Assembly: GCA_000934665.2 (NCBI GenBank)
Contig: KZ538689.1
Span: forward strand, 1 to 53,902
DNA: 53,902 nucleotides
Reading direction: 5' to 3'
Source: Catajapyx aquilonaris
Taxonomy: Eukaryota
Part shown: positions 6,425 through 52,769 of the stretch, piece after piece
Position numbering within the stretch: position 1 is the stretch's first letter
How the letters are laid out: each line of letters begins with the position of its first letter
Notes under the pieces: model-generated
The model's input: only the letters and a program-made list of their open reading frames with translations
Database searches by the model: none
What the model was told of the DNA's origin: nothing
Program-made: the position numbers and the translations under genes

Positions 6425-8875
6425 TTAATGCTGTCTTCAGGTTTGTGTGGCCCCTCAGGTTCATTATTAAAAGAGCATTTCGGTGTCCGGCCGTTTCATT
6501 AAAACATCAATTCTGCAGAAAGAATGGTTTGAAAAGCAATATACTGCAGAATGGACGGTTTAAAACGTCCAGACTGCAGAATGGATGGTTGGACAAGGAG
6601 CATTCTGCAGTATGGACGTTTTTTTCGCCCTATTGCCGTTTTCGGGGTTTGAGCCTAACAGACACATTATCAAGTATCAAACATTTTTGACCACTCCCCG
6701 AGGGCATAGGTCAAAGAATTTTTTCTAACATATAGACCCACAAGTCTGCTTTATTTTACACTAGGTGTGTCACTGCTCTTCCAAGAGGAATGTTCTAATG
6801 GTAAAGAAAAGCACAGTCTCCTTTGGAAGTAGCAATGAGACAGAAATTACGTCGCACTTAAAAATTGCTGAAACACATGTCACTTGTAGAGTATTAAAAT
6901 TGCACTTTTCAAAAGTGACAATCATGTTAGTCACTGCTATCGGGATATCGAGCTTTGGCCCATCGTTAATTAGAATCTTATTTCAGGCATTTCTTGAGAC
7001 ATTTCTGCTCTTTTTGCATTTTATATGGATGGACATCCATCAAAGGAAGGAAAGAATGCCATAAAAGCGTTTCCGTAAAAATTGACAGATGGGCCCTTAT
7101 GGCATTGTGATCTTCAATATATTGTGCTCGTTATGTTCTATTTACATGGAATTTTCCAATTGTGGCGCATCATGTCAGCACTCAATAACCTTTGGATTTA
7201 GGAGATCTTCAGATTTCAGATTAAGGATTCTCAACCTGTATAACGCTCTTCAAGGGACCAACCTAACGTAGAGTTATAAGCAAGAATTAGTTTTGTGGGA
7301 AATACAATTTAATTCACCTATTACTCAGGAAACGAATGCTTTCACTGTTATGTAGATTGCTGCCCATTAACCACATTAACATGACCTGTCCTGCCCATGT
7401 AGATCACAAAAGTATCCCTTGGCGCAAGAGTGACTAACCGAGGTCATATTAATTGTACCCATAAACTGCCTGTTCATGACATGCAACTCTTGGTGACAAG
7501 GCCCACCTCCTCACACCATCCTACAGTGGCCCTCATACTTCCAAGGTGTATGGACAAAATGCCATATTATTTATTGCTTGTTTTCAATTGCTCATTGCTC
7601 CCATACTCCCATCCTGAAGGCCGCTGTCATACTGCCAGCCTGCTTTCGAATCCCCCCTCCCTTTTCAGTACCTTTTGCAGTCATTAGCCAGTGTATAATC
7701 CGAAATCCAAATAAAAATTCCAGTCCAAGCATTTTGGATAAGGGCAATTCCACGAAAGAGCGGACATGGGGCGCGGTTCTTACATCTTGACGCAGTTGGA
7801 ATCTGAGTGACTAAAACCGATAGCATGTGGACCATGGTTTCCTTAGCCATGTTAGTTTGTGACAGTATCATTCCCAACAACCCAGTATTATTCCCAGAGT
7901 ATCTCAGCGTGCGCTCTGTGATATCCGTTCGGCTAATGCGCATTGCCAGCTGGTTATTCGCTGTACCGATATGTGAAAGGAAGAGAGACAGACGTCTTCA
8001 TATAATTCAAGGGCACAAAATGCAACATCGATCTGTGCAATCACTTTGCAGTATGCATGAATGTGTGACCTTCCACAGCCACACCAAAAGGTATCCAAAG
8101 GTCAAAAACTGACCTAGGTCCTATTTCAGTGCATAATAAGATTATGAATTCACAGACATTTCAATTTCCAAAAATTTATGCTACTCCCAGTAAATCGCTG
8201 CAGGTTGTACGTAACGATGCCGGGTGGCACGTAACAGGTGGATATCTCAAATGTTTTCACGTTCAAAATGAGAATTCTCCCAATCTAATGGCATGATGAG
8301 GTTCCTCGCACCCTACTGCCCCACATGCACTTGAGCTTCGAAACCTGTACTGTCAGATTTCGCAGAGTTTCCCCCTAGTTGCATATACCCCAGAAACTGG
8401 TGTCCAATGACGGATTGTACGTAACGAGAGTTCTGACAATCGCACAAGCGTGGATGGCCATCGAATGAAATTTCCATGATGTCCCGCACCTTCACATTTC
8501 TGAGCTGCATCTGATTTTCATAACAGTTAATCTATTACGGCAAGTACCTAGCCGCGGTGGACTCCTAAACACCTCAATACAGCTTCTGATGGTCTGTACA
8601 TAACGCGTGGAATTGCCCATAAATGATTATGAACATGTATCATACTTCTGAATAGTTACTCCAAGAAGTTGCAAAAATATACTAGTGGTCCTATTAAGCC
8701 GAATTGAAGTCATTCTGGCCTTGAAACCCAATGAATTTTATGATCCTAACTCATATTATGCATAGTTATTAGTCCTGGCATCTCTGACCACTGCATAAAT
8801 AAACAGGTTTAACTCTTCCCATCCATCCAAGAACAACTGGATTAGAGAAACCTTATCGTTGAAACATACTCTCAC

Positions 8876-9329
8876 CTTTTTGAATGTCTTCTAGAGTTTT
8901 GAGGCCCCAACCTCTGGTCTCTGTTTTGAAGGGACCCAAGCTGGGGTAACACCTCTTCTGGAACCTCCTGTTACCGCATTTTTCCTGCGCTGGACAGAGA
9001 GCACGATCACACTCTGTTAACGTCGCTCTGTTCAGGCAGTTTGAGTCCTTTCCACAAGGCGATTCAGAATTATGCTTGCATGAACAAGGACTTGATGAGG
9101 CATGATTGCCGTTGGAGTCCTTCCGATGCTTCCTGTTCTTCCCATACTGATTAATTTTTATGTGACTGTATGGGGGAGGCTTGGTTTCGTCAGGGAAGAA
9201 AGTCTTCCACACCCACTCGGAACACTCTTTGTCCCGCTGGCACCATGCATCTTTCGCTGCTTTCAGTGCAGGTTTGAAGGCACTTCCCAAGCCATGGTCA
9301 GTTGTAACCTCCTCGATGTCATCAGCATC
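8876..9329 (-). CDS. NSD: NSD-like exon: linker, AWS domain, start of SET
   Basis: Acceptor aaacag|GAT; KPPPYSHIKIN, CSC..PCGKDSNCLNR..ECD..CPAQEKCGNRRFQ, RGWGL..EDIQKG; donor G|GTGAG. Confidence 0.93.
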
Positions 9330-9688
9330 CTGTTTGGAAATGAGAAAAAAGGAAGGGATTAATCCCACATAATAAATATATTTTGCCCATACAAACCAGC
9401 ATGTAACATTTACAACTAAAAATAAAAAATTATTTACATGCCTCTATCAAACGAAAAAGTGGTTGTTAGGATGCCATTCGAAAAGGACATTATTTACGGA
9501 CTCATGTGGCATTTACAAACTCAAGCACTTTGTGGTTATGTAAAGGGCAAGTCAGACAGCAGTTGAGTCAGGATGGTGGGGCATCTGCAGTCATGACTAA
9601 GAAGGAGCAAAAAACTTTTACGAAGAAGAGAAAATAGATTACGCAAAAATGTATAAATTTTATTTGGGATGTTGTTTAAGGGGATATA

Positions 9689-14993: not shown

Positions 14994-15999
14994 TGAGTCG
15001 GTCTGAGTTTTGACTGAGTGGTCTGATTGGTCCACTCTTTCGGATCATTCTTTTCGTATGCTCCCGTCAGCTAGTGTGAACCCCCCTTTACAACGCCTTT
15101 CCCTTCAGATTCACCAGTTAAAATCAGGCCTATAGGCAATCCAATCACAATCCCATATGACATGTGCATATGTGCTATGTGCATATGTGACAATAAATAA
15201 AATGAAGAAATTAAGAATTAATAGTGATTATTATTTCTGATAGACCTAATAAATTGCCATGTAACCTTACACTTTGCCATGCAACCTGATGGGCTTGCCA
15301 TTCAAACTACTGTTTTGAAAAATCTTACTCTTTGCAGCTGAAATTTAGAAGTTAATTAGTAACATATAATGTATTGCTTATTTGCTTTCTGTAATTATTT
15401 ACTTATGGTGAAGGATATTTGAAAAATGATATTGGCCCAAAACTTTGGCTAAAATGGTGAACCTAACCTCGTAAAAAAAATTGCTTGGAAAATTTGCCAT
15501 CCAACCTTACTTAACCTATGGCTTCCTCTTCGGATAATTAGGTTGTCACACAATATATGGCAGTGAAGTATTTTTTGTAACACAGCTGGAAGGTGGCTCC
15601 ACAGTATGAATAAACGGCAACTTTAGAAAGGCGCGATTTCCTAACTATTTTAATTTAACAAAAATCTTTGCCATACAACCTGACTTGCCATCCAACCTAA
15701 TTTTACCCTATGTTTGGCAACTAGGAGACGGCAGAAAAAAATTACGCATTCTTCGGTCATGCCTGATTTACTGGTTCAAAAAAGTTTTTTATTTTTGTGG
15801 ATAGTAACATTAATAAATGCAGTACTGTGCATTACACGCATATGGAAAGCAGAAATCATTGTGTATAGGTTGCAAAAGTGGTGATTTGGCTATAACAGAC
15901 CTTGGTTATAACAGACTTTTTTCCACGGTCCCTTGAAATCTGTTATATCTGGAGTCAACTGTATTTGGCTTTAAGACATGGGAATTTTGGAATACTCAC

Positions 16000-16832
16000 T
16001 TCATTCTGAAATAAGAAGACTCTTCTATGGTGGACCCAGTGGAAGATACGAGATCGAAATAACCGAACTGCAATCTCTCCCGAATCATGCTCCAGAGCCA
16101 TGACGGTTTCTGGAATCTCCTCGGGGGGTACAATCCTCGCCGGCCACCACATCTTTCCATCCACTGACACCCACACAACATCACCATATGCATAGAACTT
16201 CCCGCCATTACAATGGCTGCAGAAACATTCTCCTTCCACATCCTTAATGTTTAGGCACTCTTTATGAAAGGCAGCAGGGCAACCTTCACAGCATAACAAA
16301 TTGCCACCATCGAAGCACTTGAAGCACCAGTCCATATTAGCATCAGATCTGACAGGCTTCTGCTTTCCATCTTCAACCACCCAAATGTGTCTTGGGCACA
16401 AAATGTGCTCCTGACTAATAGTCAGGGAACCAGCAGCCAGGCAATGAATACCTGCATGGTATGCAGTGGGACACTGGATGCATTTGATGAGTGGCTTCTC
16501 CATGTCATACCTGGTTGGGCTCACCCCACGACCATCCTCATGGCATGTATGGCATACGTGGATTGGGCACGCTCCCATAGGTCGGCTCTGGGGCCACTGT
16601 GATGGTTGCAAACAATCCTCATGATAGTACAGGCCGCACTTTGGCACTGAGCAGCGAACAGGTTTGGCATCACCTTCAATTTTCTTACAAATGAAACACT
16701 GCTCTGAGTTAGTACAACACCCTTCACACCAAGAGTTTCCTTCCTTGCTGCCTCTGGTGTCCTCCACACAAGACCGGTGTAAATGTCTCCCACACTTGCC
16801 CTTGCACTGGTGGAATTCATCCCTGCCGCCAA
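16000..16832 (-). CDS. NSD: NSD-like exon: PHD1 (end), PHD2-4, PWWP
   Basis: Acceptor tttgcag|TT; CKGKCGRHLHRSC, CFICK..CSVPKCGLYYHEDC, CHTC..CIQCPTAYH, WCFKCFDGGNLLCCEGCPAAFH, YGDVVWV..WWPARIV; donor GAA|GTGAGT. Confidence 0.93.
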
Positions 16833-17023
16833 CTGCAAAGATGACATGTGAAGGTCAGGTTATCTGTTGTTTTCAGACATAAGCACTATATCACATGAAG
16901 CTACATGTAGCCCATGTAATGTGTGAGGGTTTTTATTAAGTTATGCATATATTTTTCATTCGAATGCCAGGGCAGTTTAGACATGCATGTGAAATGCTTT
17001 CCTGACTCTTTCACTTACAAGGG

Positions 17024-22889: not shown

Positions 22890-24581
22890 CCAGGGTTGTG
22901 AACCGAACCGAACCCTGGACCCGTGAACCCGATAACATTGAACCCGCTCCGGAGCAGTCGAGTCGGGTTCGGAGCGAGCGTCGGAACGGGGTACGGGTTC
23001 AAGCCGGTTCAGGGGCCAAGGTCGGAGCGGGTTCAGAGCTGTTCAAAAGCTTGGTTAGGTAGGCCTACAACATACCAACCCAATAGGGGGAAAGGCAGTA
23101 AAACCGCTGGATTTACTCCAGAGTATGCATCATGTTTTCATGGTGGGAGAATGACATTTCCAAGCACCCGCGATACAGGGTGTACTGCAAATGTCACATT
23201 TTGATGTCATACGCACTTTTGTATGCCACAATATGTCAGAGGCCTACCCATTTTTTTGATGTCACATTCTCACGTCATACACATAACAATGTCACATTTT
23301 TATGTCATAGGCATTTTTGTACGTTACAATATGTCATACCCATTTTTGGACCGAAGCAGCGATAGCGGAGGGGATATGGTATCCGGCTGCTTATCGGGAG
23401 GTCCTGGGTTCGATCCCCGGTGCCGGCAACTCTAACCGTGGTTTTCTGTGGTTTCCCACGGTTACCCCCAGGAGAATTCCGGAGTTGTTTCCTAAATATT
23501 AGGCCACAGCCGCCTACTTCCTTTCCTATCTTTGTCCTGTCCTTGAGGAGGTGCGGGGTCGGTGGGGGGGGTTCTGACCCCGCCCCTAGGGGGATGTCTT
23601 AAGCTTGGCCCTCTGGGGGACTGCACACGACCCCCAACGTGATGACAATGCACCTACACCTGTGTCCCCCCCTCACTATCCCTATCCTGTCCCCTGCACC
23701 AGTGAGAGAAAAAGTTCGAAAATAGCGAAAAAGCTAAATGGTGGTATCCCACCCCCCTACAGAGCCAGTAGGTTTATCACGGGGTAAAATAAATAAAATT
23801 AAAAAACCCCATTTTTGGATGTAACATTTTTATGTCTTACGCATTTTTTGTATGTTACAATATCATATTATTGTAACATACAAAAAATGTGTATGACATA
23901 AAAATGTGACATCCAAAAATGGGTATGACATATTGTGGCATACAAAAATGTGTACGGCATATTGTAACATACAAAAAATGCCTATGACATGAAAATGTGA
24001 CATACAACAAATGCGCATGACATGAGAATGTGACATGCAACAAATGCGTATGACATGAGAATGTGACATGCAACAAATGGATAGGCCTCCAACATATTGT
24101 GGCATACAGAAGTGCGTATGACATTGTGGCATACAAAAGTGCGCATGCCATATTGTGGCATACGAAAGTGCGCATGACATATTGTGGCATACAAAAATGC
24201 GTATGACATATTGTAACGTACAAAAATGCGTATGACATCAAAATGTGACATTTGCGGTACACCCTGTATCGCGGGTGCTTGGAAATGTCATTCTCCCACC
24301 ATGAAAACATGATGCATACTCTGGAGTAAATCCAGCGGTTTTACTGCCTTTCCCCCTGTCGGGTTGGTATGTTGTACCTAACCAAGCTTTTAACCACTCC
24401 GAACCCGCTCCTGAACCCGCTGGCCTGAACCGAACCCCGAACCCGCTCCGACCTGGGCTCCTGAACCGGCTTGAACCTGTACCCCGTTTGCGACGCTTGC
24501 TCCGAACCCGACTCTACTGCTCCGGAGCGGGTTCAATGTTATCGGGTTCACGGGTTCAGGGTTCGGTTCGGTTCACAGTCT
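22890..24581. mobile_element. Foldback element with GAACC-rich ends and internal ~22-bp tandem subrepeats
   Basis: TGTGAACCGAACCGAACCC / GGGTTCGGTTCGGTTCACA ends; about 23045-23340 inverted relative to about 23870-24390; array of ATGACATATTGTGGCATACAAAA-like units. Confidence 0.75.
23350..23807 (+). mobile_element. SINE family A
   Basis: ACCGAAGCAG head, B box, TSD CCCATTTTTGGA. Confidence 0.8.
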
Positions 24582-25413
24582 ACGCCAGGGGTATTCAATT
24601 GGTGGACCTCGGTCCAGATCCGGACCGCGACGCAATTTTGTCCGGACCGCAACAATATACAGGACAATTTGAAATAGGATTAGCAAGTATTAATTCATGA
24701 TTTTTTTTTGGAAAAAGTGCTACAAATTTCATCAAATACACATCCATTCAAATCTCCCACATTCACCTAAGCTCGTGTGACTTTGAACACCCCCCCCCCC
24801 CAAATCGCCTGCGGAGGGCATCCTCTCCGCCCTTTACGGCTTGTTCACCTTGCGCTCATGAAATGGTCCCCCCTCCGAAACACTTTCTGCCTACGCACCT
24901 GTACAGGACATCATAACGGCCGAAAATGTATTAACATGTCCTGTCTTGTTAGGCCCTTCTTTCAAAAATGAAACCTGTGGTACCATGTAAAATCCATATC
25001 TTTACCTGGGGAAGGAGGGGGGGGGGAGGGGAGAGAGTGGACCTTCAATGGCCCAGGAAAGGTAAATACTGGACCTTGTCATAAACTAGTTGAATAGCCC
25101 TGATCTACTCTATGTACATGTTTGGAACCAGTTTCATAATCAAGCAGTCTATAAATTAATTTCCATAAGGATCGCCGCAGAGTATAGCTATACTGCCACC
25201 ACCTAGTTTTTGGCTTGCACGTACTCTAAAGATAATTACATCATATTTTTACAAATAATAACAGCTATACTTACATGTTCAGGGAAAACATAACGTATAT
25301 CTTGGAAACTATTTTCCTTGTCTAGAATTTTGCTTGCACTTACTCTGAAGATAAGCATAAGATATTTCACAAATAATAACAGATACCCTTACACGTTTAT
25401 GCTCTACACTATG

Positions 25414-25700
25414 ACCGAAGCAGTTTGGAGGAGGATATATGGTGTCCGACTGTTAATCAGGAGGTCCTGGGATCCTAGGGCCAGCAACTCTGACCGTGGT
25501 TTTCTGTGGTTTCTCACGGTCCTGCCAGGAAAATTTCGGAGCTGCTTCCGTAATAATAATAGGCCACAGCCGCTTCCTTCCGTCCCTATCCTATCCCAAA
25601 GAGCACAGTAAAATGAAAAGCAAAGAGTTCCAGGCAAAACAAACTTCCCCCCTAAAAAGCCGATGGCTGATAACGGGGTATGAATTATTTATTATTATTA
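25414..25700 (+). mobile_element. SINE family A
   Basis: Same head; TSD TTATGCTCTACACTATGA (25397-25414, 25701-25718). Confidence 0.8.
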
Positions 25701-30886: not shown

Positions 30887-31223
30887 GGGAGGCGTAGTGG
30901 TGCTGCGGTAACCCACACGCCCACGGATGTTAAGGTCCCGGGTTCGAACCCAACCAGGAGTTCCCCCCTTCATCTCGTGCAGAGTTGGGCCATCTCTGGC
31001 TTCGTCTCGGGTGGAAATTTCCGCTAGACTAATCCACCCGGGGGAGTTCACAAAATGACCAAGCAACGACATTGCACTTGCACTATGCACATCCCCTCCT
31101 ACCTACCCTAATGGTTGACCAACTAAATAATTGTCAATCATACACATGGTTCCAAATATGGTAGTATTCCCNNCCCCCCCCCCCAAGAGGGCCTTTCGGC
31201 CCTATCATGGGGTATCTAAATAA

Positions 31224-31301
<78 letters not shown>
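30887..31301 (+). mobile_element. SINE family B with (TAA)n tail
   Basis: GGGAGGCGTAGTGG head, GGTTCGAACCC B box, homologous to 13700-14070. Confidence 0.75.
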
Positions 31302-31302
<1 letters not shown>

Positions 31303-31694
31303 CATTGTTTGATATTTTTTTACAATAACATCACACAGAATTAGTCTGAAGATATGTGGATATTATACTTAAAAACTGAAAAAATAGCTAGTTAATGTGT
31401 TCTATCCCTGCCTGGCAGTGCTTAGGCATGTTTAACAATGACTCCGGTGAAGACATACATTATCTGATTTCAGTCACTGCCATGCAGTGTTGTGATGACC
31501 ATGCAATTACCTAATTTAGGTGGAATCTGCAATGACAATAAAAGATGAGTTTTCTAATAATTAATCTACAGATAGGGCCTACAATGATTTTTTGAGAAAG
31601 TACCAGGATGTGTCACTTAATTTATGGATAACATCCATGATTCCATTCATTCTTGACATTAACTATTTCACATGTCAATTATAATAGCAAGTAC

Positions 31695-31700
31695 TTTATT
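31695..31700 (-). terminator. Candidate polyadenylation signal of MsrA
   Basis: AATAAA on the minus strand about 500 nt after the stop, downstream of the SECIS. Confidence 0.3.
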
Positions 31701-32084
31701 TAGCAGTTATACTCAGCAGTACATACATGTATGTATATTTATATGGACTCAGATAATACATACGCAAAGTTTAATACATACATTTCAAAAATAATCCATT
31801 TCAAAAATAATACTTCTCGACCCAGCCTGAAATAACTGGCAAACACTCTTCAATGTATTTAATAAAACCTTCACACTCTTGGCTAAAGTGGTAATACAAT
31901 GGGCTTCATCAGAAAAAAAATTAATAATTAAGTACTGACTGTGACCTCACATCTTGTGAATGAAGAGGCAAATACCGGTAGTCAAAAAAATTTACTTCAT
32001 CAATCTTTCTTAGCGTGGCAAAATATTACTGACAGAAAATTAATAAAGATAACGTCCAATTTTTCCTCTAATTTCTGACACACA

Positions 32085-32156
32085 TGACAACAATTATTAT
32101 CATCAGCACAAAAGTTGCCCAGGGCTTCACTCTAAGTGCGTCATACTTTGTTGTCA
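32085..32156 (-). promoter_or_regulatory. SECIS element (form 2-like) in the MsrA 3'UTR
   Basis: Minus strand: TGACAACAA AGT ATGAC GCACTTAGAGT G AA GCCCTGGGC A ACTTTTGTGC TGAT GATAATAA TTGTTGTCA. Perfect 9-bp helix I, AUGA/UGA core, helix II, apical AA, GCC/GGC mini-stem. Confidence 0.9.
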
Positions 32157-32191
32157 ATTACACCAGAAATTACAGGGAAAATAAAGATTTT

Positions 32192-32432
32192 TTAACAGCC
32201 AACTTTTGCCCGGCCATAATTCTCCGCAATGCAGCGTCGCACAAAATCAGCCACCTTTTCATCCAATCCCAGCTTCTCTCTCTCAGCTTCGAAGCTTGCA
32301 AGCGATCCATATCCACCAACATAGCCATTAAGGCGGCACGCAACATTGGACTGAATCAGATCATCCAGATCCATGTCAAGCGATTGCAGTATCCAGCCAT
32401 AACGACTTTGCAGCAAATACTTTTGATGGTAA
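32192..32432 (-). CDS. MsrA: MsrA last coding exon (YHQKYL...RLNGYVGG...KVGC*)
   Basis: Follows a 52-nt intron; AE-D-YHQKYL motif, invertebrate-type C-terminal extension with LNGY and a terminal Cys, TAA stop. Confidence 0.95.
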
Positions 32433-32484
32433 CTGCAAACAAGGTGGTTACTATCTCTTCACGAATTTATAAATTGAAACTTAC

Positions 32485-32621
32485 TCCTCCGCTTCATAGA
32501 ATGTTTTTGCTGGCAAAATGAGGGTTGTAATTGGTCGACTCCTTTTTGTCTTCTCTCGTTTCATCGTCTGTTCTGCCAAATTTTTTTGCTCGTCATCATG
32601 GTAAAATATGGCCGACATGTA
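32485..32621 (-). CDS. MsrA: MsrA exon (YMSAIFYH...FYEAE)
   Basis: Acceptor tttgcag, donor GA|GTAAGT; YMSAIFYHDDEQKNLAEQTMKREKTKRSRPITTLILPAKTFYEAE. Confidence 0.95.
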
Positions 32622-33229
32622 CTGCAAAAAAACGTATGAATTACAACACATGGAGGCATATTTCAGTCCTTCATCCTACATTATGAGAACTGCTTCCACC
32701 AAATATTGTGGTGGTCCAAGGAAAAACCATTCCTGGCAGTGTTCCTTTCAGTGGAATGGGGGCAGTCAGGATTGAAAATCTTCATGTGCATTGAACCATC
32801 AGTAAAAGTGTCTAGCTATGCTAATGATTAATTTGTGACAGTTGAATCATGTGTCATTCAAACTGAAAATTAGCATCCACCATTGATTTCATTGCCATAA
32901 ATGCAGTTTTGTAATGACTGTGAAAGTTGCATTTTTTCCAAATGTCCATTTCAAAGGGAAACTTTCCAATCTACTATGGTAATAACAGTATGGTACTATA
33001 GCAGCGGTTCTCAACCTATGTCATATTGGGCCCCGCTGGAAAGTAATTTCAGATATCCCCCACCTCTTTTTCCATCCCCCACCCATCTAGGCACTACGAC
33101 AACTTCACTACTAGTAAGTAGTCCAGTACGTAGTTTAGGAAGATACAAAAGTACTGTACTCCATAGGTCAAATCACAGTAATTGTTCAATATGTCCTGCA
33201 TTGAGTACCGCACAGGCCTGTAGGGGGAA

Positions 33230-33501
33230 TCACAGGTTCTTCAGCACACAGGAAACAAAATTTGCGCCTGTGGCATGGCATTTGTCCTCGATCCTGGTGC
33301 AGAGGTGGGCCATATTGCGAATCTTCACCTGTACACCCATCCGTGTAATGAAATGGCCTCGTCAGAAAACAGCACAGGATCCATCCTGTCTCAGAACCAA
33401 GCACACATTTCCACCCTCCAGACCTGTGCATGACTCAATGACGGTAATGTTGAACAATTACTGCAATTTGGCCTATGGTGTGGGACTTTTTGGACACCCT
33501 G
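33230..33501 (-). mobile_element. Degenerate Tc1/mariner remnant in an MsrA intron
   Basis: TA-CAGGGTGTCCAAAAAGTC end; VLFSDEAISLHGWV resembles the first-Asp motif of DDD/E transposases. Confidence 0.5.
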
Positions 33502-33915
33502 TATATTGCTCACAAAGTTGGGAGATAATTTTACATTGAAACCAAATGCAAAATCATCTCCTTTTCGAGTGATACAGTACACCCCTTTAAATTAATACAT
33601 GCAACTTTCCAATTTCCCCTTTTTCTGGCATGATAATGGACCTGAGTAGACCTACCCATATTGGCATTGTAATAATTATCACACAAATATCAGTAACTCA
33701 GTCATTACCCCAAATATATTTTTGGACCCCTTTGCAAGACCACAGATAGGGGTGTCCAGATTAATGATTGAAGGTCACTGTGTTAAAACACCCTACAAAA
33801 CATGGCAAAAGACTAACAAACTAATACTTATAGAAGGCTATGATACCCAGATTCTTGGGAATTAATCCATAAGGTGCTTTACAACTCGTTTCTAACACGG
33901 CTGCTAGCTAAGTAC

Positions 33916-34030
33916 CTGTCTTGACTTCTTTCCAGTTGGATCGTGCCCATTCCAGAACATATCCAGGAGCTTGGTGTAATTGGTTTCAGTCTCATCATAG
34001 TCCATGTCAACTGTTTCAGTGTGGTCGCCA
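33916..34030 (-). CDS. MsrA: MsrA exon (GDHTE...FWNGHDPT)
   Basis: Acceptor ttacag, donor CAG|GTACTT; GDHTETVDMDYDETETNYTKLLDMFWNGHDPTGKKSRQ carries the MsrA HxE and FWxxHDPT motifs. Confidence 0.95.
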
Positions 34031-34194
34031 CTGTAACAAAGAAGCATTCAGCAAAGGCAATATTTATCAACCAGTACTTATGGACCAGCACTCAACTGCA
34101 AAACAAAATTCCCTACATTAAATGTTTGCCCCCAAAATGTTAATGACAAATTACAAATGAAGAGGGGGACTTAATTTGGGTAACAAGGTCTTAC

Positions 34195-34379
34195 AGGTTG
34201 CGATACGTAGGATTGGGTGTTGTCCCACCAGTGTATCCAACACGTGTTTGCACGACCCCCGGAGCACAGCCGAAGGCTGCCTCCGGGAACCAAAATCAGG
34301 ACATGCTGAAGGTGGCCTTTTTTGTGGGCTTGTTTGGATTGGACATCATTCCAGATGCTCCTCTATGTGATGCAAGTAC
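34195..34379 (-). CDS. MsrA: Selenoprotein MsrA, catalytic exon with in-frame TGA (Sec) at 34296-34298
   Basis: VLASHRGASGMMSNPNKPTKKATFSMS*FWFPEAAFGCAPGVVQTRVGYTGGTTPNPTYRNL. TGA occupies the Cys position of the MsrA xCFW motif. Acceptor ttaccag, donor CT|GTAAGA; internal ATG at 34349. Confidence 0.92.
34256..34289 (-). other. GC-rich stem-loop starting 6-8 nt 3' of the Sec UGA (candidate Sec redefinition element)
   Basis: TT-CCCGGAG-GCAGCC-TTC-GGCTGT-G-CTCCGGG-GG: 7-bp plus 6-bp stem with one bulge. Confidence 0.5.
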
Positions 34380-34950
34380 CTGGTAAAATGAACACTTCAT
34401 TGAGAATACATCATTTTAAAAAAATTATAAAGCCAACCATAACAACACACGAAGCATGCAACCTCCGTAACAAACTTTGCAGGCATGACAACTTCAAGGA
34501 AGTACATCTTTAAAATATACTTTTCTGGACCCATGTTCACTGGGCTTTCATGTCATTTGGCAAGTGTTTAGACCTGCATCTGCGAAGTTTGTTACAGAGG
34601 TTTAAAGACACCTTTTCTAACTGAAATTTAGTAATATCTCAGCATAAATCTGCTTATTTTTAACTTTCTATTATTGCTTCAACCAAAAAATTGTACTTCT
34701 GTTGCGACTTTCAACAATGTCAACCAAATTAAACGCAGTTTCCATCTCCATCGTGGCCCACCTTTGTACTGTACAAGTACTGTCTAATAGCCAGACAGTC
34801 TTAGCAAGAGGCCTACTGTTGGCCTGAAACACACAACTTACAAGAGCAGAAAAAAAAACTTTCACTCTCTAGATTCAGTATGTACCGGTGTGTAAGCAAT
34901 CAATCAACAACAAAATGTGTATCTACTTCCCCCCCAAAAATTTAACCAAC

Positions 34951-35001
34951 CTGGCTGATGCTTCGCGGAAGTAGTGCAATCACGCACTTTCGCAATATCA
35001 T
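34951..35001 (-). CDS. MsrA: Candidate first coding exon of MsrA (mitochondrial presequence-like MILRKCVIALLPRSISQ)
   Basis: ATG 35001, 17 codons, phase-0 donor CAG|GTTGGT matching the phase-0 acceptor at 34379; Arg/Leu/Ser-rich, no acidic residues. Confidence 0.55.
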
Positions 35002-35072
35002 TACATCATAATACTGTAGAACGCTTGTAGAATGTAAAACAGGAGAGCGCACGGTTTAGAGAGCACCTTCAA

Positions 35073-35108
<36 letters not shown>

Positions 35109-36005
35109 TTCAAGGTAGTTGAAGGGTCCTACTACCTGTGGTCAAGCCTGCCACATTCCCACACTCCCAGAAAGGCAGAAACCTCTCATTCACAAAATTG
35201 ATGCGTAAATACAGAACTGATGATTAAATAAAAGTTCAAAGCGCGAGTATTTATTTACAGTAAAAGCACAGGTAGTAAGAAACTGCCATTATTGGTCGTA
35301 ATCACGGTCGTAATCGTCATAATCAACAATAATTAGTCTGAATAAGTCATTGTTAATACCGGTTAATACCAAAGGAACCATTGATATTGCTCAGCAATAT
35401 GTCATGGCAATATCTTCGGTGCCACAATAATGTATGCATAATCATAATGTAATGCCTATAATGTAGCCCTAATCCCATAATTTGTGGATGGCCTTTTTCT
35501 TGCAAACAATCATTTAACACTTAACCACCTACGTGAATCTGCCACTCATTGGCTACGACGCGACGTGGGGTATTTCACGACCCCACGCGGTTTTCATTTT
35601 TTTTTTTAAATTTGCCTTAATAGCACTAAAGCCATTCTTCCGCGCTAAATTCTGCCTGTATTCTCATCTGTATGTGTAAAAAAAATCGATCTCCTGTGAC
35701 CATTGGTTGAGTCCGTTGAGTCATAAGGGACCTGAGACTCCGTTATCGCACCTTATTCGTAGCCTTCCAGTTTGATTCTGTAAGTTAGTAATGGCTTATA
35801 ACGTAAACATTTCCAGCTGCACAGTCTGCAAGATTTTAGTTCTGAGCAATATTTATTGCTGAATATCGACACTCACACTTTATAAAATACAATTTTGCGG
35901 TGATGCGCTGTGATATGTGCTCTCTAAAAAATTATGTACATTGGCTACGACGTGGGGTATATCTGGACCCCACAGGGACGCTTAGCAGCAGAAAAGTACC
36001 GGTAA

Positions 36006-37088
36006 GGGGACGTCCACATATTACGTAACGGTATTTTTGGCCATTTTTGACCCCCTCCCCCCCTCTGTAACGGGACCGTAACGATCTCCTGAACCCCCCC
36101 CCTCCCCCCCCCTCCGTTACGTAACGCCCGCTTTTTTTAAAATTTCGTGCTTTGGAACGAGCCCCACGTGTTTCATGTATATAAAACCAAGGCAATAATT
36201 TTAAGAATATGTTTACTGTAAAACTACTGTACTTGTGAAAGAAAAGAAAACTTTTGTACCGATACTAAAATTTAATATAGACAGAAATGATCTGTATTTC
36301 AGAAGATTTGTTTAAAAAGGGGAAGCCTGAGTCGCCTCGACTCAGGCTATGAGGCTCTTGGGAGGGTGGGGGGAGGGCGAAAGAAAGGGGGAGGGGAAGA
36401 TAGTTTTTGGAGTGTGGGAGGAAATTTATAACGGGAGAACCCCGATATAAAACCCACGCAAGCGCGGAGAGAACTCCATCGAAACTCAATCCATATGGGA
36501 AATCCTTGGCCCAATCCGGGGATCGAACCTGGGACCCCAGAGGTGGGAGGAGGCGGACTTTATAATATTAAACCACTACGCCACCGCGTCGCCCGTATTT
36601 CAGAAGAAAAACGAAAAAATTAACGAACTACGTTACGTACAGGTGCGTATTTTTAAAGCTACAATATGGGCATGTTTTATATAAAAGAGAAAATAGTCAG
36701 AACAAAAATGACATTTTTCTATGACTTTGAGACCCTGGAACAATTGTCACGCAATAGGTATGGAATCAACAAGTAGTACAACATGTGACTCACATAAATA
36801 CCTTGCATAAAAATAGTGAGGTTGTCAAGTTCCTACGAAAAGTCTCATAAATAGCTTTTTTCGCACGTTTTTTTTTACCGATTCGGACCACTGTGAGGCG
36901 TCACTCAGTGGGTAGCGGACGACGCAGCCACGCAGGCCACGCTGAGTCGCACTCGGAATATTTATACAGTGCGTTCAAATGCGTTACGTAACGGCTACCC
37001 AACCCCCCCTCCCCCATGTAACGGACCGTCACGCTCGCCCAAACCCCCTCCCCCCCTAAATCCCGTTACGTAATATGTGGACGTCCCC
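36006..37088. mobile_element. Harbinger-like MITE
   Basis: TAA-GGGGACGTCCACATATTACGTAACGG ... CCGTTACGTAATATGTGGACGTCCCC-TAA; another copy begins at 53799. Confidence 0.8.
36307..36594 (-). mobile_element. SINE with V-domain-like core
   Basis: GGGCGACGCGGTGGCGTAGTGG head, B box, TSD GTATTTCAGAAGA. Confidence 0.75.
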
Positions 37089-42029: not shown

Positions 42030-43730
42030 CCTAAGTGTTCAAAACAGACAATATTCTGTCTACCGCTAGGCAGAATAAGGTGTTAAATTCCACTAGGAAA
42101 CACGTGACGAAGGCAGTCCTTGGGCACGGCCAACCCAGTCCTCTGGACGTGGCCACACTCAGTATAGGGACACCTGTCCTGGTGTCCTCGGTCACAAGGG
42201 CATTGGGCATCCTCCATCCTTCCTTTCAGCCTAAAGTGAGACACGTAAGCCCGGAATGGGCCATGGCCGGATATGACCCAGGCCACATGTCCATGCAGGT
42301 GACGGTCGTCATCCACCTCGGGAAGGAAGGCATGGCACCAATCCCCTCTCGTCGCCCACCTCATCTGGCAGTTCATCAGGTAACGATGCCAACACCTCCT
42401 CCCCACGGCTGCTCCGGTCTCTGGCAAGAAGGCCCTCTCCACCATCAGGCCAGCCGCTCTCCATGCTTCGCTGTCCACTCGCTCGTTGCCTAGGATTCCA
42501 GCATGCCCCTTGGCCCAGCAGAGGGTCACCTCAGCTGAAATGGAACGCAGCACCTCCCTCGTCCTGGCCGCCACACCATCGATGAAATTCTGGAGTCAGC
42601 TAATGTCTGCAGGGCCGACATAGAGTCGGACAGTATATCCACGCCACACTGCCCCTCAGTAGCTGCATCTCTGCCAGCATCTCAACGGCCCTCTCCACCA
42701 CGTCCAGCTCCACCTCGTAGATTCCCGCCTTTGTCAGTAAAGCGACTCATCTTACAAACAACTCCTCAGCACTCCCACTGATGCCCACCATGGCCACACC
42801 AGCTTTCTGGTCTCTTGTGAAGATGATCACATCCAGCCCCTTGGGAGACTCTGTCCATTTCAGGATGTCTAGCCACTCCCACTGCTAGGGGTGGACAAGA
42901 TGGTACATCACCCGGCTCCTCATCGTGGGCCTAGCAGCTTTTTGTTCCAGAAAGTCCCAAAGAGCTTAGTATCTAGCTTGAGGCTGTAGGTCCGGAGGCG
43001 GACAGCTGGCAAAGATGTTCAGGATCGCATTGGGGGTTGTCCGATATGTCCTAGTAGTCACCAGAAGCATCAGCCGGATGGCCACCTGCAGGCAGGACCT
43101 GATGCTCATATCGGTTGGATGTCTTCCTCACACCTCGGACCTGAACAGCAGAATCGAGAGAATGGCCCATCCCAACACCACACATCTACTATGGGGGGCC
43201 ATCCTCCAGTTGAGGCCTGCCACCCTCCAGATCCTGGCCAGCAGCCCCCACACCTTGTCCCTCATGATGCAGGCGTGTGAGATCCAAGTCAGGCGCACGT
43301 CGAGATGGAGCCCAAGACTCTGACTGGGTTCAGTGGGGCTTAACGTCGGCCTATTTCTGCCTGTAAGGCTCAACACCGACGCCATGGGGGGTGTCCTCCT
43401 CCTGGAAATTTGGCCACTCTGGGGATCTTTAACGTGCACTCGCGCAATGACACAAGCACACGGGACCGACGGCTTTACTTCCCCTCCGAAGGAAGGCGCA
43501 CTCTCACTTTTCTACCACCCGGAGAAAAGTCACCGACCTCGGTCGAGTTCGAACCACAACCTTCGGACCAGAGGCGAGCCCCAAGACTCTGATTGTCAAT
43601 CCCAACGTGATGTGCTCTCCCTGGAAGGCCACCCTCGGCTTCCCTTCCAACAGATGGTATGGGAGGAAAAGGCCCTACAATATCAGCGAGTACTATACAG
43701 ACAAGCAGGTGTTTAGGGGCAAATGTAGGT
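42030..43730 (-). mobile_element. Degenerate non-LTR retrotransposon (RNase H-bearing, R1/I group) 3' region
   Basis: VTLCWAKGHAGILGNERVDSEA RNase H motif, upstream ILSDSMSAL, downstream SGHGPFRAY and Cys/His knuckle remnants; frameshifted; SINE D inserted. Confidence 0.75.
43322..43578 (-). mobile_element. SINE family D
   Basis: Inverted copy of 27254-27498; TSD CCCAAGACTCTGA. Confidence 0.75.
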
Positions 43731-50940: not shown

Positions 50941-51069
50941 CGATGTCCTGACATCCAGGTCTTCAAACTGCTGTTCAAACTTCTCCATCACTTGTGACAC
51001 TTTTTGAAGGTCCATTGAGTTAAGAGCCTTATCCAATGCCTTGACTACAGAGGACATGTTTTTGGTTAC
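50941..51069 (-). CDS. CHMP1A: CHMP1A exon
   Basis: [47 protein letters not shown] borders, phase 0. Confidence 0.93.
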
Positions 51070-51133
51070 CTGAAAAAAGCAATGATGTAGCATACATTGG
51101 CACAGATGAGTGGCAAATAACTGAGTGCCCTAC

Positions 51134-51378
51134 TCCTTTCATGGTGACAGCTGACTGGACTTTGGATGAGACTGCATCCACTTTGGAGGACATACGAAGA
51201 TAATTTAAGCCTTCATTTTTCTTGCGGATGGCATTCTCAGCATAGATTCGTGCACCTTCCACATTTCCCTGTTGCAGTGCTTTCTTCACCTTGTTCTGCT
51301 GCACTTTCTGGTCTTTTTCAGCCTTATGTGACAGCTTCTCCAGCTGCTTTGCACAAAAACGCAGCTGGAAAAGTGTGT
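51134..51378 (-). CDS. CHMP1A: Charged multivesicular body protein 1a (ESCRT-III), first visible coding exon; start exon not found in window
   Basis: (D)[24 protein letters not shown]...[40 protein letters not shown] matches the CHMP1A pattern; ttgcag acceptor, GTAGGG donor. Confidence 0.93.
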
Positions 51379-51739
51379 CTGCAACACAAAAATATCTTCT
51401 GCAATATTATAACAATACCAATATATGGCAACAACAACAACGACGACGACAACAACAATACCATGGTACCCCTCAAATGACAGAATTCCTATGAAAAGGG
51501 TGGTGACCACATGAGCTAATCGTGACATCAGCAGATTATGATAAGACTGGCTGCATTTAATTAGTATTGGCATATAAAGAGGCAATTTCAGGCATCCAAA
51601 ACAGTTCTTGTAACTAGGACGTTGGAAAGATTTTAAACTCTCTTTGATGTGCTACCCAATAATTTTTTGGGGGAAAAAAATCCACTTTTTTACTGATCTG
51701 TTTGTGTGAATGGATCAATCAATGAGACAATAAGCTGTA

Positions 51740-52769
51740 CAGGGTGTATCAGGTCAAGCGCGCGCGAGGGGGTGGGGAAAAATCGTAGGTGGCAACAACG
51801 GTTTTATAAAATAATGAGAAATACGGCAGTAATCAATTTATTTATTACGGCCTACCGAAGCAGTGGTAGCGGAGGGGATTTGGTATCCGACTGCTAATCG
51901 GGAGGTCCTGGGTTCGAACCCCGGAGGCCGGCGATCCTGACCTTGGTTTTCTGTGGTTTTCCAAGGTCGCTCCAGGAATAATTTCCGGGATCGTACCATA
52001 ATATAGGCCACAGCCGCTTCCCTTCTTTCCCTGTCCTGGAGGAGATGCGGGTCAGTCGGGGGTTTCTGACCCGCATCTAGGGGGCCATCTATGGCGAACG
52101 GACCCCCTGAGGGACTGCACACGACCCCCAACTTGAGACATTGCACATGCACCAGTGTCCCTCCCTCCTATCCCTACCCTGTCCCTGCACCAGCTACTGT
52201 ACAATAATAAAAATAAAAATAAAGGTCCGTGTGATATACCCCCAGTTGGGGGTGAAAGCACTACCCCAGTTGTTGTTATTGTTATTATTATTTATTACGG
52301 CCTACGGCGTGACGTCACATCCTTTCTGTATTCGAATTGACCCCTGAGGCAAATGCAAGGCAAATGCTTTCAGTTGAACCTGGTTGAACTGGTTTTTAGC
52401 CTTGCAGGTTGCACTGAAAAAGGACCTCTCATGCTACACCGGCAGGGTACTGTGCAACGTAGTGTACTACTGTACAGTGGTGTGTTCAGTACCCTGCTGG
52501 TGTAGCATGAGAGCGCCTTTTTCAGTGCAACCCGCAAGGCTAAAAACCCGTTCAACCAGGTTCAACCAAAAGCATTTGCCTTGCATTTGCCAGTCCGCGG
52601 GGGTCAATTCGAATACAGAAAGGATGTGACGTCACGCCGTAGGATGTAATAAATAAATTGATTACTGCCATATTTCTCATTATTTTATAAAACCGACCGG
52701 GGTTGTCGCCACCTACGATTTTTCCCCACCCCCTCGCGCGCGCTTGACCTGTGACTCTGATACACCCTG
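51740..52769. mobile_element. Palindromic mariner-type MITE (same family as 9689-10279) interrupted by SINE A
   Basis: Same ends and body; TA flanks. Confidence 0.85.
51855..52287 (+). mobile_element. SINE family A
   Basis: TSD TTATTTATTACGGCCTAC (51838-51855, 52288-52305). Confidence 0.85.

Follow-up and report, generated by a model that had tools for sequence, protein, structure and literature searches.

The 53,902-nt stretch of contig KZ538689.1 analysed here (positions 1 to 53,902), called the window below, is metazoan DNA and carries on its minus strand a gene for methionine sulfoxide reductase A (MsrA), in which an in-frame TGA occupies the position of the catalytic cysteine. This is a genuine, spliced and transcribed animal gene. 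An earlier note had described it as a four-exon gene encoding a 215-residue MsrA with selenocysteine (Sec) at the active site, followed by a Sec insertion sequence (SECIS) element after the stop codon. All four exons proved right, but the structure was incomplete: a fifth exon, here called exon 0, lies upstream, ends at 34951 and is joined to exon 1 at 34379. The features of the locus are listed below; UTR stands for untranslated region, PMSR (PF01625) and PF20939 are Pfam families, CoMsrA is the MsrA of Clostridium (Alkaliphilus) oremlandii, and X5 is one of the sequencing runs introduced further on.

32192 to 34379, minus strand: MsrA gene as first described, with exon 0 upstream; from exon joining, Pfam matches and a spliced contig
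34951 to 35066, minus strand: exon 0, from a joint in the X5 spliced contig, with 35066 as a provisional 5' limit; the contig carries 88 nt more, across a CT microsatellite
35001 to 35009, minus strand: two-codon upstream open reading frame (ATG ATG TAA), whose stop overlaps ATG 35001 by one base
34195 to 34379, minus strand: exon 1, opening with 30 nt of stop-free frame, followed by ATG ATG at 34349 and the N-terminus of PMSR with the active-site motif
34296 to 34298, minus strand: in-frame TGA, putative catalytic Sec codon; codon 18 from ATG 34349, aligned with CoMsrA Cys16
33916 to 34030, minus strand: exon 2, PMSR with GDHTE and HDPT motifs
32485 to 32621, minus strand: exon 3, PMSR
32192 to 32432, minus strand: coding part of exon 4, with YHQKY, then the helical domain PF20939, a Cys as last residue and TAA at 32194-32192
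31990 to 32191, minus strand: portion of the 3'UTR within the transcript contig, 202 nt
32061 to 32181, minus strand: SECIS-type hairpin, from descriptor match and fold, inside the transcribed 3'UTR

Joining exon stretches 34349-34195, 34030-33916, 32621-32485 and 32432-32192 gave 648 nt, that is 215 codons plus TAA. The donors of the three introns between them read GTAAGA, GTACTT and GTAAGT, and the acceptors consist of a polypyrimidine tract and AG. The sole internal stop of the joined frame is the TGA at 34298-34296, in the context ATFSMS-U-FWFPE (U marking the TGA), and 3' of it the frame runs unbroken over three introns, with no second stop and no frameshift in the four coding exons. Both the translation and the alignment to CoMsrA place this only interruption at the catalytic Cys position, and the downstream MsrA motifs that the earlier note had called intact (RVGYTGG, PTY, HTE, HDPT, QY.S.IF and AE.YHQ.Y) are all present in the translation.

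The Pfam scan was done exon by exon, with a gathering cut-off of 23.7 bits for both PMSR and PF20939. PMSR was matched by exon 1 with 45.5 bits (E 1.2e-11, profile positions 1-40), by exon 2 with 34.3 bits (E 3.4e-08, positions 48-82) and by exon 3 with 37.4 bits (E 3.8e-09, positions 91-137), the three matches being collinear in profile order. Exon 4 matched PF20939, 'Selenoprotein methionine sulfoxide reductase A, helical domain', with 49.2 bits (E 4.6e-13). These exon-wise matches are far beyond chance and therefore confirm the gene.

When the exons were compared with PDB sequences, the best matches of exon 1 were CoMsrA chains (4W8C, 7C13, 4U66, 4LWJ and others) at 51-52 bits (51.9 for the best), and residue 18, encoded by the TGA, aligned with Cys16 of 4W8C and 4LWJ, a position that is natively Sec. 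The matches of exon 4 at E<=1 were to CoMsrA only (6 of 6 sequences), with alignment to CoMsrA residues 136-199. The active site of CoMsrA, as described in the accessible text of PMC4333827, consists of the catalytic Cys/Sec in an x-C/U-FW motif together with conserved Tyr, Glu, Gln-Tyr, His and Tyr residues. U18-F-W, PTY, HTE, QY and YHQKY are present and aligned in the window protein, and on these alignments the residues are probably equivalent. The protein has four Cys, one of which is its last residue; among the 13 helical-type relatives in the MsrA alignment, 7 also have a Cys close to the C-terminus.

Five sequencing runs contain the stretch, of which X1-X4 are DNA from one sample, possibly the window's own source, and X5 comes from another sample and study. 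Contigs of X5, X1 and X4 were placed on 31200-36500. One 1084-nt contig of X5 crosses joints 32432/32485, 32621/33916 and 34030/34195 with 0 differing letters; the joints coincide exactly with the predicted introns, whose minus-strand ends are GT..AG, in agreement with the four canonically spliced exons of the earlier note. A fourth joint, to exon 0, lies at 34377/34949 and can equally be placed as 34379/34951, again with GT..AG ends on the minus strand. X5 was taken as RNA because its contig is spliced; the MsrA introns are uncovered in X5 except at repeats, a pattern consistent with a transcriptome and no more.

The spliced X5 contig retains the TGA, and its 3'UTR extends to 31990. Since this contig has 0 differing letters, the TGA is kept in a spliced molecule of an independent sample, and the skipping of the TGA-containing part of the exon, which the earlier note had named as an outcome that would overturn its claim, was not what this contig displayed. 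The DNA contigs of X1 and X4 span 33527-35066 with 0 differences, and the TGA is therefore not a read error. At contig level the TGA is thus found both in DNA and in what was taken as spliced RNA.

A word-indexed search with the exon 4 protein as query returned 11 database proteins. The closest of them, P0001, has 82% identity over 179 residues, and those with a named source were proteins from an amphipod (57% identity), a coral (47%) and an Anaerolineae bacterium; the amphipod and coral relatives both carry PF20939. In all 11 the active site is missing, 10 of them starting 3' of it and one being a chimeric open reading frame, and we attribute the N-terminally shortened relatives to gene callers, which shorten proteins in this way at an in-frame TGA. 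The prediction that ordinary annotation would truncate a Sec-containing MsrA (Sec-MsrA) is thereby borne out. The exon 1 protein gave just 3 matches, all bacterial-type Cys-MsrAs, an ESM Atlas look-up of P0001 returned bacterial MsrA clusters only, and a 14-row MsrA tree gave no resolved position for the pair formed by the window protein and P0001.

Metagenome contigs were then scanned with an alignment of ten of the exon 4 relatives (P0005 was left out), 80 loci were kept, and the upstream frame of each was read. The catalytic codon is TGA at 75 loci and Cys at 3, the remaining 2 being too short to judge. Conserved residues (ATF..G/S-U-FW) extend 5' of the TGA position at all 78 judgeable loci, and the unusual form of the motif in the window, MS-U-FWFPE, is common to loci L001, L002 and L005. 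As a more general observation, loci L003-L080 indicate that metagenomes of sediments and anaerobes very commonly contain the helical-domain MsrA, nearly always with TGA at the catalytic codon, and many of the metagenome copies have upstream extensions of variable sequence.

The 3'UTR was examined for a SECIS-type structure. A stretch of 123 nt (32060-32182), starting 10 nt after the stop codon, folds with a minimum free energy of -39.1 kcal/mol (z -4.49), and 0 of 200 shuffled sequences were as good. AUGA-C at 32144-32140 forms the 5' core and U-GA-U at 32105-32102 the 3' core, and both fit the SECIS core consensus UGAN/KGAW given in the accessible part of PMC3753652. Unpaired AA is found at 32127-32126, 13 nt after the UGA of the 5' core. 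Helix I has 9 bp (32156-32148 with 32093-32085), extended by a further long basal stem, and helix II has 9 bp with a 1-nt asymmetry; a mini-stem of 3 bp makes the hairpin type II-like. A descriptor written for the SECIS architecture found 11 sites on both strands of the 53.9-kb window, corresponding to ~0.1 per kb per strand and therefore to ~0.02 expected in the 202-nt transcribed UTR, and among the 11 sites the 3'UTR hairpin has the best helix II energy.

The same architecture recurs at L005, where it was found by the descriptor (fold z -4.86; no Rfam SECIS match), and at L002, where it was found by fold, missed by the strict descriptor and weakly matched by Rfam SECIS_1 (17.9 bits). Common to the window, L002 and L005 are AUGA, a helix II of ~9 bp, AA 12-13 nt after the UGA, and the mini-stem. 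An Rfam match of the hairpin to mir-BHRF1-2 was rejected: it scored 28 bits against a cut-off of 87 and only reflects the long stem.

From the alignment with Cys16, the coding signal on both sides of the TGA, the TGA in the transcript contig, its use at 75 of 78 judgeable loci, and the hairpin, we infer that the gene encodes an active and genuine Sec-MsrA, as the earlier note had claimed, whose catalytic residue is very probably UGA-encoded Sec; we put the probability at about 0.9. Several points weigh against this. The SECIS descriptor was written after the candidate had been seen, and because it is post hoc the chance estimate of 0.02 is optimistic. No Rfam SECIS family (SECIS_1 to SECIS_5) matched the hairpin, not even when 136 nt (32060-32195) were scanned at E<=10. 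Likewise, no SECIS family was matched at E<=10 in 31000-32300, and at the Rfam gathering threshold the whole window gave no SECIS, its sole match being a tRNA-like sequence at 1539-1610. No SECIS-like element was found by fold or descriptor in the 241 nt of 3'UTR available for L001. X5, moreover, is not on record as RNA, its nature being deduced from the spliced contig, and the evidence from the runs consists of contigs, which drop rare variants. Rfam also misses the strong element of L005, and we therefore attribute the lack of a match in the window to low sensitivity and do not count it against the SECIS. The SECIS element that the earlier note had placed after the stop codon is accordingly upheld structurally (core, fold and descriptor), but not by any Rfam SECIS match.

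Among the rival explanations, the one that survives best is that of a recently dead selenoprotein gene, in which Sec decoding has been lost or is being lost, so that translation now ends at the UGA, 17 (or 44) residues in, and what follows is a transcribed relic. Loss of selenoproteomes is documented in insects and nematodes in the accessible text of PMC4244043 and PMC2375036, and Capitella is described in part of PMC3473315 as having incomplete Sec-MsrA copies without SECIS. On the other hand, the four coding exons of the window gene hold no other stop or frameshift, its splice sites and Pfam domains are all intact, the fold of the SECIS-type hairpin is strong, the 82% identity to P0001 extends over 179 residues, and a spliced transcript contig exists. 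A dead gene was accordingly judged improbable.

It was judged still less probable that translation truly stops at the UGA and that initiation further downstream yields a protein with different catalysis. Gene callers do give just such N-terminally truncated models for the relatives, but no Met follows the TGA until past the GYTGG and HTE region, which means that the product would lack the catalytic residue, and the conservation 5' of the TGA at 78 of 78 judgeable loci also argues against it. Least probable of all is that the TGA stands for a Cys codon (TGC/TGT) altered by faulty sequencing or assembly, or carried as a rare nonsense allele, an explanation already largely refuted and with next to no probability left: one base change suffices to turn Cys into TGA, and Cys is used by 3 of the 78 judgeable relatives, but the TGA is present with 0 differing letters in the X1 and X4 DNA contigs and in the spliced contig of X5, whose sample and study are different ones, and 75 of the 78 have TGA at this codon.

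For the Sec-MsrA, the following scheme can be proposed. A 5-exon mRNA would be translated with the UGA at codon 18 recoded to Sec through the type II-like SECIS hairpin, which begins 10 nt after the TAA and ~640 nt 3' of the UGA. By analogy with other MsrAs, including CoMsrA, the Sec would attack the sulfoxide of methionine-S-sulfoxide (Met-S-O) to give a selenenic acid, which a protein thiol, or else a reductant of the glutaredoxin or thioredoxin type acting directly, would then resolve. The conserved C-terminal Cys would be the best candidate for a resolving thiol, and the C-terminal helical domain may keep the active site in shape, as in CoMsrA.

Exon 0 offers a possible second start. It contains an in-frame ATG at 35001-34999, from which the frame is open to ATG 34349, adding 27 residues, and a TAA at 35058-35056 closes the same frame upstream. 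Of the 27 added residues, 5 are basic and none is acidic, and locus L002 also has an in-frame basic, Ser-rich extension 5' of the active site. A targeting presequence with alternative initiation is therefore plausible but unproven; starting at ATG 35001, the basic, acid-free presequence may give rise to mitochondrial as well as cytosolic isoforms, comparable to mammalian MsrA, for which a mitochondrial presequence and an alternative start are described in part of PMC6316033. The overlap between the stop of the two-codon upstream open reading frame and ATG 35001 is a possible termination-reinitiation arrangement controlling the long isoform. In the accessible text of PMC2375036, PMC3473315 and PMC4244043 on invertebrate and algal Sec-MsrAs, there is no mention of a presequence with a start of this overlapping kind.

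Sec-MsrA is an already described family, and the gene adds one more animal to its published range. Its occurrence in some algae, bacteria and invertebrates, stated in the earlier note, agrees with the literature, as far as the accessible parts of the papers go: the algae Chlamydomonas, Ostreococcus and Thalassiosira are among the published cases (PMC2375036), the family is called 'widespread in marine invertebrates' with Amphimedon, Trichoplax, Nematostella, Capitella and Branchiostoma (PMC3473315), and it is reported in Strigamia (a centipede), Daphnia pulex, Ixodes (a tick) and Branchiostoma (amphioxus), while insects and vertebrates are given as having Cys forms only (PMC4244043). The window gene resembles these invertebrate and algal genes in the catalytic UGA, in a eukaryotic SECIS in the 3'UTR (a SECIS-type hairpin here), in being an intron-containing nuclear gene, and in its routine truncation.

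With CoMsrA (PDB 4LWJ-4LWM, 4U66, 4W8C and 7C13) the window protein shares the architecture of PMSR followed by a C-terminal helical domain. According to the accessible text of PMC4333827, the helical domain of CoMsrA is essential; as a 1-Cys enzyme, CoMsrA lacks any Cys other than the one at the catalytic position, and glutaredoxin recycles it. The window protein differs from this bacterial enzyme in having four Cys and in its motif, which reads S-U-FWF as compared with G-C-FWG in CoMsrA, and recoding here would use a 3'UTR SECIS instead of a bacterial in-frame hairpin.

The canonical Cys-MsrAs, represented by the bovine (1FVG), mouse (2L90) and human mitochondrial (6AGV) enzymes, have the same catalytic domain, matched by exon 1 at 37-41 bits, but use Cys where the window protein has the putative Sec. 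Drosophila Eip71CD is an insect example of a canonical Cys-MsrA. The exon 4 query gave no match to the helical domain among the PDB chains of canonical vertebrate Cys-MsrAs at E<=1, and because the domain is unmatched there, orthology of the canonical Cys-MsrAs with the window gene is not established. On these sequence comparisons, insect and vertebrate Cys-MsrAs may be paralogous to the window gene instead of being orthologues that underwent conversion.

The earlier note had also expected the gene to help date the switch from Sec to Cys if the host were a hexapod. This expectation was not supported: there are published cases of Sec-MsrA from invertebrates, non-insect arthropods among them (accessible parts of PMC3473315 and PMC4244043), and nothing pointed to a hexapod as host. 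Moreover, a simple switch at one orthologous locus is not established, because the gene belongs to the helical-domain subfamily and the domain is absent from vertebrate MsrA structures. We consider it quite unlikely that the host belongs to a lineage thought to have Cys-MsrA only, such as the hexapods, in which case this would be the first helical-type Sec-MsrA there, and insects would have lost the Sec paralogue with no conversion. What is known of Sec-MsrA itself is unchanged by the finding, but the gene illustrates cleanly, with transcript support, how automatic annotation misses or truncates a selenoprotein gene. It also places an animal enzyme in the helical-domain subfamily, which is common to anaerobic bacteria, and this membership bears on the question of whether insects and vertebrates converted Sec to Cys or lost the gene with a paralogue kept.

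Elsewhere in the window, exons of an NSD-type histone-lysine methyltransferase lie on the minus strand between 432 and 21472, with SET (435-854) and AWS (8856-9443) domains, and the NSD-type gene has PHD_NSD, a variant PHD and PWWP at 15958-16854, also on the minus strand. A 299-aa NSD-like exon had best identities of 37-40% to the 6 NSD-like proteins among the 7 matches of one search, the named ones being from a snail, an eel and a tick and none from an insect, and at most 46% in an exhaustive search of representative sequences; over these two very large protein libraries the best identity was put at 39-46%. An ESCRT-III exon of the Snf7/CHMP1-like type is located at 51032-51406 on the minus strand, with Pfam Snf7 and Ist1 matches below the curated cut-offs.

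The tRNA-like sequence at 1539-1610 (72 nt, plus strand) is called tRNA-Ser(GCT) by ARAGORN and matches Rfam tRNA at 39.7 bits. It sits inside a repeated element that has similar translated stretches at ~23305-23598, 25404-25688 and 51838-52167, and looks like a tRNA-derived short interspersed nuclear element family rather than a tRNA gene. High-copy repeats were found at 32970-33146 and 33501-33677, within MsrA intron 2, and at 35448-36500; the contig depth of repeats in the DNA runs was 10-80 times the single-copy level (~30), with many loose ends at 33528/33561 and 36005. Finally, 42086-43511 holds a degenerate retroelement remnant that matches RNase H weakly (E 0.0055) and has long, overlapping open reading frames on both strands.

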